DNA from: Candidatus Yanofskybacteria bacterium
Lineage (GTDB): Bacteria > Patescibacteriota > Minisyncoccia > 2-02-FULL-40-12 > IGHO2-01-FULL-4-A
Direction: 5' to 3'
DNA length: 64,000 nt
Assembly (NCBI GenBank): GCA_016181175.1
Contig: JACOZV010000001.1
Coordinates: forward strand, 182,185-246,184
A program made the position numbers and the translations under genes. Each line of letters starts with the position of its first letter. The stretch's first letter is position 1. The notes beneath the pieces were generated by a model. It searched no databases, was not told the origin of the DNA, and saw nothing but the letters and a program-made list of their open reading frames with translations. This document shows, piece by piece, positions 761 to 20,946 of the stretch.

Positions 761-792
761 CCCTTAATACCTGCTACTTAATACTTGCTACT
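761..792. repeat. 32-nt direct-repeat element, family 3, intergenic copy abutting the start codon of 798..1685
   Basis: cccttaatacctgctacttaatacttgctact, itself two roughly 14-nt units of TAATACYTRCTACT. Confidence 0.6.
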
Positions 793-797
793 TTTTT

Positions 798-1685
798 ATG
801 CTCTGGATCTATCTAATAATTTTTGCCCAATTTCTGAATGCTGTTGTAACGCTTGTTGATAAGCATTTTGTTACCTCGGCTCTTATCGGCAAACCGTCGG
901 TTTACGCTTTTTATATTGGAGCCATGTCGGTGGCCGCGATTTTGCTCTTACCATTTGGTGTTGTAGCGGTTCCCACTCCCGACGTATTTTTGCTTTCTCT
1001 TGTGGCCGGGGTCAGCTATGTTTTTTCGCTACTTTTCTTGTATAAGTCTCTCAAATTATCTGATGCGTCAGACGTGGCGCCGGCACTCGGCGCGGTAAGC
1101 GCCATCGCAACGCTTGGTTTTAGTTTTCTGTTTTTGGGCGAGAACCCAACCGGCAATCTTTTATACGGTTTTATTTTACTTGTTTTTGGAACTTTTATAA
1201 CCTCATATTTCCACCTTACAAAAAAGGCAACACTATTTTTGATAACTGCCGGTATTCTATTTAGCCTGTCAACTATTTTTTTAAAAGAACTTTTCAATCA
1301 AACAGCTTTTTGGAACGGCTTTTTTTGGTCGCGTTTGGCCAATGTGCTGGGAGTGGCATTGTTGTTGATTTGGCCAGGTAACGCAAGAGCCATCCGGAGA
1401 AACATCAAAACTTCATCTGCCGGTACCAAAACCGCAGTGGTTGCCAATAAAGTAATTGCCGGTTTTGCCTTCCTTTTGATACTTTACGCGATTAAACTTG
1501 GTGACGTTTCCATAATTAACGCCTTGACTGGGGTACAGTTCGCTTTTTTATTGCTCTTTGCAATTTTGTTCACCAAAAAATTTCCAAATTATTTTTACGA
1601 ATCGGTTCACCACCACCATACTGTTTTGCGCAAAACTGTTGCTACGGGAGTAATAGTTGTCGGATTGGCCCTGTTATTTTTGTAA
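798..1685 (+). CDS. polytopic membrane protein, DMT/EamA-like transporter
   Basis: 295 aa with about 10 predicted hydrophobic helices in a two-half organisation typical of EamA/DMT proteins. His-rich stretch near the C-terminus. No catalytic motif seen. Confidence 0.4.
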   Translation: MLWIYLIIFAQFLNAVVTLVDKHFVTSALIGKPSVYAFYIGAMSVAAILLLPFGVVAVPTPDVFLLSLVAGVSYVFSLLFLYKSLKLSDASDVAPALGAVSAIATLGFSFLFLGENPTGNLLYGFILLVFGTFITSYFHLTKKATLFLITAGILFSLSTIFLKELFNQTAFWNGFFWSRLANVLGVALLLIWPGNARAIRRNIKTSSAGTKTAVVANKVIAGFAFLLILYAIKLGDVSIINALTGVQFAFLLLFAILFTKKFPNYFYESVHHHHTVLRKTVATGVIVVGLALLFL

Positions 1686-19124: not shown

Positions 19125-19125
19125 T

Positions 19126-20946
19126 ATGCTGAATATAAGAGATAAAAAAATATGCATCATCATTTTAGTTGCCATCGGTTTTTTAGTCTACGCTTTTAAT
19201 TTGAATGGCCCGCTTTTTTGGGATGATGATGATTGGATAAAAGGAAATGTTTTTGTTCATGATTTCTCACACCTTAAAGAAATTTTTACCCAAAATATCC
19301 TTTCTGGTTTTGGTTTGAACAGCAATTATTACCGACCTCTACTTTTGTTAAGTTTTGCCGTCAACTATGCCATCGGAGGCATTAAACCGTTGGGTTACCA
19401 CCTGGTCAGCAATGGATTTCATCTTGCCAACGGGATCCTATTATTCCTCATTTTATTGGCCATTTTTAAACGGCGATTGCCGGCTTTCATTGCTGCCCTC
19501 TTATTTTTAATTCACCCGCTCCAGACCGAAGCTGTTACCTATATTTCGGGCCGCGGCGATCCAATGTCAGTGTTTTTCATGCTTCTCGCACTCTGGTTTT
19601 TTATCAAAGCCGAATCTTGCACGACATCGCAAGTCGTGCAGTTTCACAACCTGCGATGCCGTAAAAGTTGGTTATGGATTGGCGCTTCCTTGTTGTCTAT
19701 GGTTGCAGCTGTGCTAAGCCGCGAAACTGCCATTTTGTTGCCGCTTTTGTTGATGGTTTTTTACATAAGTTTTCTCACTAGTGGTGGTTTTTTGATGTCA
19801 TTGCGGACAGCATTTTTAAAAACATCATACTTTTGGGCGATCTCTATCGGTTACTTTGTTTTGCGTCTAACTGTTTTAAACTTTCAAAATACCCTCAATT
19901 TTTATTCCCAAGCCAGTGACTATTCCCAGCATTTAAGTTATCGGCTTTATACCTTTGGACACGTTCTTTTAGAATATTTTAAACTTATTTTTGTTCCAGT
20001 CGGGCTTCACATGGAGAGGGATTTACCGCTCAAGACATCTTTATTCCAATGGCCTGTTTGGCTTGCAGTGGTTATTGTGGTCTTAATTGTCTGGGTAGGA
20101 GTTGTGCTTTATAAGAAGGGAAGAGTTCTTAAATTAACGACATCGGATGCCGTTGCGACATCCGATGTCAGGATATGGTTTTTCGGTTGGTCATGGTTTT
20201 TTATTGGCCTTGCTCCTGTGTCAGGCATTATCCCGATTAATGCGGTGATGTATGAACACTGGCTGTATTTGCCATTGATCGGTTTATTTACTCTCATTGG
20301 CTTTTACTTGACTAAGGTATTTGACTATCTTAAATCCAAATCCCTTAATACTTACTACTTAATACTAGCTACTGCTTTCGTGATTTATGCTTCTTTCCTC
20401 GGCTATCAATCCATCAAGCGCAACATTCTCTGGGGCAAGCCGCTGGAATTTTATGAAGACATTCTGAAATATAATTCTAATACCGTGAGAATAATGAATA
20501 ACCTGGGTAATCTTTACTCTGAAAAAGGTGAGATTGGTAGGGCCGAGGAAATGTACACAAAGGCCATAGAGAGTCCAAACGGAAACATTTTTGCACAACC
20601 GCATTATAATCTTGGTAACATTTATAGAGACAGAGGTGAGACAGAAAGAGCCATTGAGCAGTATAAGGAAGCCATAAAAGCCGACCCTTCTTTTCCGTTT
20701 GCCTATCAAAACCTTGCGGTAATTTACGCGGGCCGCGGCAATTTGGTGGAAGCGGCATTGATGCTGGAGGAAGTCAAAAAACTCAAGCCCCAAGATCCAA
20801 GAGTTTATTATAATCTCGGGCTTGTTTACCTGGCCCAGAACAAAAAAGACTTGGCGTTGGAAAACCTGAAGACGGCTTTTGGGTTCTCGGCTGGTGATCC
20901 GGAGGTTGCCGCTGAAATTAGAAGAATTTTGGAGGTATTGGAGTAG
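19126..20946 (+). CDS. GT-C TMTC-like membrane glycosyltransferase with TPR repeats (paralog 3)
   Basis: 'GPLFWDDDDW' motif, multiple TM helices, C-terminal TPRs ('NLGNLYSEKGEIGRAEEMYTKAIE...'). It carries an in-frame copy of the 32-nt direct repeat at 20342..20373. Confidence 0.55.
   Translation: MLNIRDKKICIIILVAIGFLVYAFNLNGPLFWDDDDWIKGNVFVHDFSHLKEIFTQNILSGFGLNSNYYRPLLLLSFAVNYAIGGIKPLGYHLVSNGFHLANGILLFLILLAIFKRRLPAFIAALLFLIHPLQTEAVTYISGRGDPMSVFFMLLALWFFIKAESCTTSQVVQFHNLRCRKSWLWIGASLLSMVAAVLSRETAILLPLLLMVFYISFLTSGGFLMSLRTAFLKTSYFWAISIGYFVLRLTVLNFQNTLNFYSQASDYSQHLSYRLYTFGHVLLEYFKLIFVPVGLHMERDLPLKTSLFQWPVWLAVVIVVLIVWVGVVLYKKGRVLKLTTSDAVATSDVRIWFFGWSWFFIGLAPVSGIIPINAVMYEHWLYLPLIGLFTLIGFYLTKVFDYLKSKSLNTYYLILATAFVIYASFLGYQSIKRNILWGKPLEFYEDILKYNSNTVRIMNNLGNLYSEKGEIGRAEEMYTKAIESPNGNIFAQPHYNLGNIYRDRGETERAIEQYKEAIKADPSFPFAYQNLAVIYAGRGNLVEAALMLEEVKKLKPQDPRVYYNLGLVYLAQNKKDLALENLKTAFGFSAGDPEVAAEIRRILEVLE
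20342..20373. repeat. 32-nt direct-repeat element, family 3, in-frame copy in the GT-C gene 19126..20946
   Basis: cccttaatacttactacttaatactagctact (29/32 identical), encoding 'SLNTYYLILAT'. Confidence 0.6.

Follow-up and report, generated by a model that had tools for sequence, protein, structure and literature searches.

How does a sequence of 32 nt come to lie both just upstream of one gene and, nearly unchanged, inside the reading frame of another? This question is raised by a stretch of 64,000 nt from a groundwater Candidatus Yanofskybacteria genome (contig JACOZV010000001.1, positions 182,185 to 246,184), which is called the window here and is numbered from its first letter. The first copy (761-792, cccttaatacctgctacttaatacttgctact) precedes a transporter gene of the DMT/EamA family, and the second (20342-20373, cccttaatacttactacttaatactagctact) lies within the open reading frame (ORF) 19126..20946, which encodes a membrane protein of the GT-C glycosyltransferase fold. 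The proteins match database entries of a Candidatus Yanofskybacteria metagenome-assembled genome with 100% identity. An earlier note on this DNA had described the two as a separate 32-nt repeat family and had suggested that the genome tolerates, and may use, small repeats inside membrane glycosyltransferase genes. Our analysis showed that the true unit of the repeat is a heptamer, nnnTACT or CTTAnTA depending on the register. The two sequences are probably short, imperfect arrays of the heptanucleotide simple sequence repeat (SSR) type, with CTTAATA / CTTRCTA as units (nnnTACT in the other register), which were born by slippage and kept where they were tolerated. As a 32-nt family of their own they did not hold up; both are short arrays of 7-nt units and belong to a general class of period-7 arrays.

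Structure of the two copies

The coordinates of both copies, the identity of 29/32, the tandem pairs of 14-mers and the in-frame peptide SLNTYYLILAT (residues 406-416) were all confirmed. In an extended alignment of 758-797 with 20339-20378, 34/40 positions were identical, and 9/12 flanking bases were common to both. Tandem Repeats Finder (TRF) recovered the 14-nt pair at 763-793 (2.2 copies, 94% matches) and at 20344-20373 (2.1 copies, 87% matches), together with a period of 7 at 768-793 (3.7 copies) and 20344-20366 (3.3 copies). Written in register, the first copy reads TTAATAC, CTGCTAC, TTAATAC, TTGCTAC and the second TTAATAC, TTACTAC, TTAATAC, TAGCTAC, each with four heptamers and with the TAC(T) core in common. 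Units with the exact core in the nnnTACT register numbered 3-4 each at 772-792, 20346-20373 and 33938-33958. As a whole, the intergenic array (761..797, +) consists of CCC, its four heptamers and TTTTTT, and runs as far as the ATG of the DMT/EamA gene; the in-frame array (20342..20373, +) can be divided into CC, CTTAATA, CTTACTA, CTTAATA, CTAGCTA and CT. The first copy had been said to abut the ATG at 798 directly. It does lie just upstream, with five T's (793-797) between the two.

Relative to random sequence, the 29/32 match is far beyond chance. Occurrences of the 14-mer TAATACYTRCTACT were counted over the window, 43 orthologous loci and metagenome contigs. With at most two mismatches, 13 matches were found in the window against 1.31 expected, and none of 100 dinucleotide shuffles reached 13. 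The earlier note had named chance similarity as the alternative, in case no additional copies existed and the orthologues conserved the segment; additional copies do exist, and the orthologues do have the segment, with the result that the two conditions point in opposite directions. The unit family of the 32-nt copies was also found at 33921-33962 (-), 28442-28472 (-) and 728-749 (-), with a degenerate array at 3610-3635.

The GT-C slot

The gene 19126..20946 (+) encodes a GT-C-fold membrane domain and a C-terminal TPR domain. Its assignment to the GT-C fold is based on a multi-helix membrane domain of GT-C architecture with an acidic motif in the first loop. The array codes for S406-T416: the turn that follows the helix 383-404, then the opening nine residues of the last transmembrane helix (408-436). 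It is read in its only open frame, the other two frames being closed by TAA at 20346 and 20360 and TAG at 20366. Whether the 11 residues are an insertion was checked in an alignment of 29 orthologues with 48-100% identity. All of them have the segment, mostly at equal length and with no gap at residues 406-416 (for example KLTTYYLLLTT, KPTTYYLLLIT, and SFNIYYLILTT), and the segment is therefore not an insertion.

The DNA of the slot was compared over the 43 orthologous loci, which are designated by L numbers. At the same codons, perfect heptamer arrays were found in L033 ((CTTACTA)x4) and L016 ((CTTTCTA)x5), and other units in L014 ((TTTTCTA)x4), L007 ((CTTATTA)x4), and L034 and L006 (both TTAGTYR units). 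L001 has about seven GATTACC-type units and is 21 nt, or 7 residues, longer; L003 has about seven GCTTACA units and is 18 nt longer; and in L012, L019, and L042 only decayed traces of arrays were found. The longest arrays of the relatives at this slot comprise 5-7 units. A heptamer period reads its unit in all three frames in turn, and because selection on the protein cannot create that pattern, the periodicity is best understood as a product of the DNA level.

The sequence of the slot does not track the phylogeny of the gene. The window matches L027 and L033 at 28/33 and 26/33 nt of the slot, with 9/11 third positions in both cases, whereas over the whole gene the two show 54% and 52% amino acid identity to the window and 41% identity at third codon positions. 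With the closest relative, L001 (83% amino acid identity), 17/33 nt of the slot match, which ranks 576 of 594 windows and is thus near the bottom for this gene.

A separate observation concerns the same place in other Parcubacteria (L017, L018, L022, L023, L026, L037, L025, and L035). These carry repeat-encoded inserts that are not heptamer arrays, such as FQGSTLNLQKGRTF, KIQGRTL, and KSQIPNHKQYQNSNNQ...WNLFGIC, at about residues 400-420 before the transmembrane helix, and the site therefore appears to be a general hotspot for small repeats.

The GH1-DMT junction

The first copy is flanked upstream by the C-terminal part of a GH1 glycoside hydrolase gene (68..721, +; Pfam PF00232), the 5' end of which is outside the window and which is complete, with 390 aa, in L044-L046. 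Downstream lies the DMT/EamA-family transporter gene (798..1685, +; Pfam PF00892, E 1.3e-11). The spacer between the two genes is 76 nt in the window and 17-29 nt in relatives with a DMT protein 80-82% identical, a difference of 47-59 nt. Three relatives have arrays, mainly of heptamers, at the same junction: CTAGAAA, CTAATAA, TTAGAAA, CTAGAAA in L049; TCTAATT, TTTAATT, TCTAATT, TCTAAAT in L053; and ATTCTAG, ATTCTAA, CTTCTAG, ATTCTAG in L056. These arrays overlap the end of the GH1 gene, stop 4-9 nt before the ATG and carry TAA or TAG. In the first copy, two of the three forward frames are closed by TAA at 765 and 779. The Shine-Dalgarno (SD) motifs GGAG, GAGG, and AGGA are absent before the ATG at 798. 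Only 10/50 long ORFs of the window have one of these motifs 5-16 nt upstream, and the leaders are mostly A/T-rich; an A/T-rich leader without an SD motif is therefore normal here. Since arrays of differing units occur at both sites in relatives, the GT-C site and the GH1-DMT junction are conserved array slots in which the units turn over between genomes.

Distribution of period-7 arrays

To be counted as an array by self-similarity, a segment had to reach 14 of 16 matches. By this criterion the window contains seven arrays at period 7 and six at period 14, against at most 0.1 in dinucleotide shuffles; periods not divisible by 7 gave 0-1 arrays each. TRF gave about 17 arrays of period 7, 14 or 21, of which 10 lie in a 7.6-kb cluster of GT4 glycosyltransferase genes at 27614-35179 (binomial P 5e-6). 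Over 670 kb of sequence from the orthologous loci of related Parcubacteria, 7 was the commonest period (58 arrays), followed by 14 (43), and every other period had at most 21. In the window and the GT-C loci together, 60/66 arrays are within long stop-free frames. The positions of the arrays also recur between homologues, at three slots in the GT-C gene and in four loops of GT4 enzymes.

A metagenome scan with the query TAATACNNNCTACTTAATAC returned at least 120 loci, and nearly all of the matching loci were nnnTACT arrays themselves. Of the metagenome arrays inside ORFs, 30 had TACT on the coding strand and 1 on the template strand, a bias which is trivial because the other orientation contains stops. 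Many contigs carried multiple arrays, and inverted pairs of them often occupied the spacer separating two co-directional genes; such pairs fold as hairpins (z -2.4 to -4.1). The layout [AGTAnnn]n...[nnnTACT]n-ATG, seen at 728..797 in the window, was found in metagenome contigs as well. On the Microgenomates-like contig Ga0308407_1001290 (L105), five nnnTACT arrays lie at 5623-10131 within 13.8 kb, one of them 6 nt upstream of a glutamate dehydrogenase gene, and the family therefore spans groups of the Candidate Phyla Radiation (CPR). Period-7 arrays characterise the lineage as a whole, both in this genome and in related Parcubacteria and Microgenomates.

The same contig L105 encodes a TrxB-like protein with an in-frame insert of low complexity (KNQISNSKMTNQNSKIF).

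Proposed origin by slippage in tolerant slots

In the origin proposed here, arrays would be generated and re-homogenised when replicating strands slip and mispair by units of 7 nt (or 14 nt), and they would persist only in slots that tolerate extra or variable sequence. One kind of slot would be the short intercistronic spacer. There, the TAA or TAG of the units would shut off the upstream frames, and the tract, rich in A/T and poor in G, would serve as the SD-less leader of the next gene. The other would be the structurally permissive protein segment, which would require a stop-free frame and a segment length that is a multiple of 3 as a whole; slippage alone could keep this rule through steps of 21 nt (7 residues). 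The likeness of the two 32-nt copies would then come from the restricted vocabulary of units that one genome shares, to which ectopic copying between arrays may add, and the two would not be copies of a mobile element.

The likeness was judged against that of other heptamer arrays. Among about 5,000 between-genome pairs, 0.22% (11 pairs) reached 29/32 or better, and about 0.15 pairs at 29/32 were expected among the 66 pairs of the window's 12 arrays. The restricted vocabulary of units goes a long way to explain the 29/32 match, which is not exceptional among heptamer arrays. As for the suggestion that small repeats are tolerated and perhaps used in membrane glycosyltransferase genes, its first half was supported, with in-frame arrays in GT-C-fold and in soluble GT4 genes here and in relatives; for the second half no evidence was obtained, the Rfam, fold, promoter, copy number and frameshift searches being empty.

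Several observations weigh against slippage. Both 32-nt copies are imperfect (73-87% match at the 7-nt level by TRF) and have only four units, and with so few and imperfect units present-day slippage should be slow. The first copy was identical in five independent Logan assemblies of the same strain, among which no length differences were seen. In the flanking units, which the search pattern left free in the metagenome arrays, the TAC(T) core (C 0.90) is better preserved than the remaining three positions, a pattern closer to that of a constrained, phased motif than to pure slippage. The shared vocabulary also explains the common 14-nt superstructure and the 9/12 flanking bases of the window copies only moderately well. 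Pairs within one genome reached 29/32 or better more often than pairs between genomes (1.4% vs 0.22%, Fisher p 0.018, with three within-genome pairs), which is a hint of copying. Slippage itself is a mechanism that we infer from the arrays.

Alternative explanations

It is possible, but rather doubtful, that the first copy (761-797) was written from the GT-C array or a kindred one by ectopic gene conversion or template switching, the identity then being one of descent; such copying would refine the slippage account and is compatible with it. If it took place, the coding copy was likely the older one, because distant orthologues share its pattern (it looks old, and L027 and L009 keep the alternation of CTTAATA and CTTACTA at the same codons) and because the first copy is lineage-specific, with other units and much shorter spacers in the relatives at 80-82% amino acid identity. 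The similarity of the copies runs into the flanks (34/40), L033 and L016 each have one unit at two slots of one gene, and the enrichment of within-genome pairs is suggestive. A permutation test on the consensus units, however, was not significant (13.5% vs 10.3%, p 0.18), and the enrichment comes from three pairs and from several thresholds that were tried. In addition, the 5' CC that both copies have in common is just 2 nt of coding sequence, and 29/32 was also reached by 11 pairs of unrelated arrays from different genomes.

Another explanation, which we regard as unlikely, is that the arrays act in cis in the mRNA. In that case, nnnUACU arrays before start codons would be bound in tandem by a single-strand RNA-binding protein of the S1 or cold-shock type that covers about 7 nt. 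Alternatively, an array and its inverted partner would fold into a hairpin between the cistrons, on which the translation, processing or stability of the downstream cistron would depend. The orientation of the intergenic metagenome arrays agrees with this: among those with a gene start within 60 nt, 30 were sense and 10 antisense (binomial p 0.002), and a start within 15 nt was found for 21/41 sense and 2/34 antisense arrays. The better conservation of the TAC core than of the rest of the unit, the presence of arrays 4-9 nt from the ATG without an SD motif in four lineages at the GH1-DMT junction, and the folding of inverted array pairs into hairpins (z -2.4 to -4.9) point in the same direction, and the same idea has been put forward for the TAACTGA repeats of Beggiatoaceae (PMC4679880). 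On the other hand, the junction units differ wholly among close relatives, so that no sequence-specific site is conserved, and two of the three junction arrays of the CTTACTA family in the window have the opposite (AGTA) orientation. The predicted fold of the leader was not significant, either for 722-830 (z -0.85) or for 722-800 (z -0.99), with 728-749 paired in the minimum free energy structure. No Rfam match was found in 600-900 at E up to 1 and no sigma-70-like promoter in 500-1000; one AT-rich terminator-like hairpin (693-717) is located inside the end of the GH1 gene. SD-less A/T-rich leaders are usual in this DNA, and a cis-element would leave the coding copy unexplained. The SD-less leader and the hairpin are candidate roles of the arrays, both unproven.

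A broader proposal, that the heptamer arrays are an actively maintained genomic system of CPR bacteria and more than debris of slippage, has a low probability in our judgement. In its favour, fixed slots at gene junctions and in homologous loops of the GT-C and GT4 surface-glycan enzymes are rewritten time and again with genome-specific units, and the nucleotide sequence of the slot, third codon positions included, is uncoupled from the phylogeny of the gene. If it were true, the maintained arrays could diversify or switch glycosyltransferases, give recombination handles between paralogues, or supply phased nnnUACU protein-binding leaders for SD-less translation.

It is improbable, too, that the arrays in surface-glycan genes are contingency loci which switch or vary the enzymes by gain or loss of units, as in neuO of Escherichia coli K1, and a role in phase variation is unlikely for these two copies. 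Such loci would fit the concentration of TRF arrays in the GT4 gene cluster, the perfect arrays of 4-5 units in some relatives and the 21 nt (7 aa) of extra length in L001 at the GT-C slot, and neuO provides a precedent of an in-frame heptanucleotide variable number tandem repeat (VNTR) in a glycan-modifying enzyme (PMC13001214). They do not fit the integrity of the genes, since 0 of about 60 in-gene arrays in 44 loci split a gene, all being in frame, and only junctions of complete genes were found. Moreover, the arrays are short (3-7 units), both 32-nt copies are imperfect, the copy number did not vary across five samples, and the protein clusters at 90% identity are singletons with no length variants on record.

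A discrete 32-nt miniature mobile element, inserted before the DMT gene and into the GT-C gene, is largely refuted: the 29/32 identity, the 13 related 14-mers against 1.3 expected, the palindromic in-frame repeats of the same genome and the Y1 transposase genes near the GH1-DMT locus in relatives speak for it, but there is no insertion gap, the GT-C site has no gain in length over most orthologues, inverted termini and target-site duplications are missing from both copies, whose units are direct repeats, the other family members differ in number and order of units, and the orthologous sites, that of the longer first copy included, carry arrays of other units.

Other arrays and repeats of the window

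The third array of the CTTACTA family (33921..33962, -) reads CTTACTA, CTTACTA, CTTATTA, CTTGATG, CTTGCTA on the minus strand; the stop codon of the GT4 gene 32881..33942 lies within it, and it adjoins the ATG at 33962. An array of the same type at 28442..28472 (-) is in frame in the GT4 gene 27614..28822 (-), where it encodes SLTTHFLLRTT, and arrays are present at the homologous position in L033 and L001. The short partner array of the first copy at 728..749 (-) has the opposite orientation (plus strand AAGTATTATGTATTAAG), contains the minus-strand 14-mer match at 734-747 and can pair with 777-793. A degenerate remnant of the family at 3610..3635 (-; plus strand AGTAGTAAGAGTTATAAG) abuts the ATG at 3636.

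The remaining arrays of the GT4 gene cluster are built of other units. Two are in frame at 27971..28068 (-) in the gene 27614..28822, one of TTTGAGA type (ENIKSKISNLK) and one of AGTAACT x4.7 (KLLVTSYQLPVT). An array of TAAATTC / TTATAAA at 31734..31766 (+) covers the stop of the GT4 gene 30685..31758 and the start of the GT4 gene 31764..32888, and the latter gene contains two arrays in frame, (AAATTTA)x4.7 at 31884..31920 (+), which encodes PNLKFKIENLKLF, and (AAACTAT)x3.9 at 32494..32520 (+), which encodes KTMNYKLETN. Three more are in frame at 34476..34796 (+) in the GT4 gene 33962..35179: AAGAATT x5, TTACTAG x4.9 (LLVTNYQLPVT), and a 21-nt repeat x2.1 (SLKLQVKSLKLQ). Heptamer arrays are not limited to glycosyltransferase genes. 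In the spacer between a hisF-like and a hisH-like gene (59839..59902, +), the inverted arrays (GTAATCA)x3 and (AGTTACC)x5 end at the ATG at 59903. Their hairpin has -14.9 kcal/mol (z -4.86), with 0/200 shuffles equally stable, and the leftover units lead into the ATG.

Further repeats were observed alongside these arrays. At 24493-24531, (ATTGATC)x2.9 is followed by a perfect 10-nt tandem pair (GATTAATAAC x2) directly before the ATG at 24532, where the gene of a secreted protein of 1009 aa, rich in Cys, Pro and Tyr, begins. An inverted repeat of 88 nt (28018-28105 and 34646-34733, 75% complementary) is common to two GT4 paralogues that lie on opposite strands; it is centred on the array-coded linker LLVT[SN]YQLPVT and could act as a recombination handle; the array type of this linker also occurs in the intergenic segment 59861-59899. 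Palindromic repeat pairs lie in long ORFs at 13185-13256/16935-17006 (72 nt, 93%) and 14447-14512/58514-58579 (66 nt, 86%) and are presumably the two palindromic families mentioned in the earlier note. Orthologues of the GT-C gene have inserts that resemble those encoded by the palindromic repeats, for example NPVRGREGPQRISASNGV in P0047, and Y1 transposase genes (IS200/IS605 or RAYT-like) a few kb from the GH1-DMT locus, at 14817-15488 in L049 and 8386-9084 in L053, may bear on these families. In the ORF 21024..22754, duplication of a protein module (…KVYVQG..GTL[ST]W[IV][KR]TLEDFNAAGYNWADVQ…) accounts for a direct repeat of 153 nt at 22224-22553 (73% identity, spacing 177 nt); the repeat is not an element at the DNA level.

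Implications

The genomes of CPR bacteria (Patescibacteria) are small and are thought to be streamlined. This genome nonetheless retains a dozen or more 7-nt tandem arrays in 64 kb, most of them translated, and the 32-nt pair is to be merged with them rather than counted as a repeat family of its own. In CPR proteins, DNA repeats give rise as by-products to peptides such as LTTYYLLLTT, LLVTNYQLPVT, and KFKIENLK, which should be treated in annotation and alignment neither as conserved motifs nor as insertions. In glycosyltransferases, almost any sequence that heptamers encode is tolerated in parts of the transmembrane helices and of the inter-domain loops. Should the arrays turn out to be mutable or to be protein-bound, these uncultured episymbionts would have a first candidate mechanism for varying their surface glycans or for controlling translation through the leader.

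Comparison with known systems

Heptamer SSRs, short tandemly repeated repetitive (STRR) sequences, start-proximal heptamer repeats and an in-frame heptamer VNTR are already known. No report of heptamer repeats in Patescibacteria was found in the open-access literature searched, nor a description of such arrays in CPR bacteria, of a mainly in-frame location, or of persistent slots at homologous glycosyltransferase codons with turnover of units.

Heptamers are the most over-represented long SSRs in many bacteria and have been put down to polymerase slippage (Mrazek, Guo & Shah 2007, as summarized in PMC4679880 and PMC4692102). The arrays here resemble the prokaryotic 7-nt SSRs, as far as those summaries describe them, in their tandem heptamers and in the excess of period 7 over other non-triplet periods; at least three head-to-tail units were found, with an excess over chance and over neighbouring periods. 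As reported for Xanthomonas (PMC4692102), length and sequence vary between close relatives at one intergenic site. Between species, the junction spacers measure 17-29 vs 76 nt and the coding slot of L001 is 21 nt longer; within the strain, the five assemblies are identical. Going by the same summaries, the non-triplet SSRs surveyed lie mainly outside coding regions, whereas most of the arrays here are in genes and in frame; the position of an array at the same codons across orthologues only about 50% identical and a CPR bacterium as the host also set this case apart from those surveyed.

The TAACTGA repeats of Beggiatoaceae, cyanobacteria and Bacteroidetes (MacGregor 2015, PMC4679880) likewise have 2-6 units a few nt from a start codon, with stops in the forward frames that often overlap the upstream stop, and with rare SD motifs. 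Inverted pairs are found now and then in those repeats as well, and so are in-frame copies at protein termini; here in-frame arrays are frequent and internal, in loops and at the ends of transmembrane helices. Many units coexist in one genome here, and in the BOGUAY genome related heptamers are rarely repeated (PMC4679880). The unit here is CTTAATA / CTTRCTA and not TAACTGA. The start-proximal layout is nevertheless the same, with the array 5 nt before the ATG at 798, forward stops and no SD motif, and it was also found in three relatives and in 21/41 sense metagenome arrays.

Canonical STRR units in heterocystous cyanobacteria include CCCCAGT, TTGGTCA, and CAACAGT, from which the units here differ. 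Like the STRR sequences of Calothrix and Nostoc (mentioned in PMC4692102), the arrays here are dispersed tandem heptamers with several unit families per genome. STRR sequences are described as intergenic, have other units and belong to another phylum, and the likeness does not imply homology.

In neuO (5'-AAGACTC-3', prophage CUS-3 of E. coli K1, PMC13001214), as here, a coding heptamer array is located in a surface-glycan gene, is translated only if the frame is preserved (copy number divisible by 3), and gives a 7-residue peptide for every three units. The neuO arrays have 3-53 units (modal 20), are perfect and phase-variable, and are phase-OFF in 66% of genomes (PMC13001214), whereas the arrays here run to 3-7 units and are imperfect in many cases, with no OFF allele found among them. 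Compared with the long and variable 7-bp promoter repeats of hmw1A/hmw2A in Haemophilus influenzae (PMC8262952), the first copy has four imperfect units and was invariant in five samples; like them, it precedes a coding sequence, a position from which the number of copies could modulate expression.

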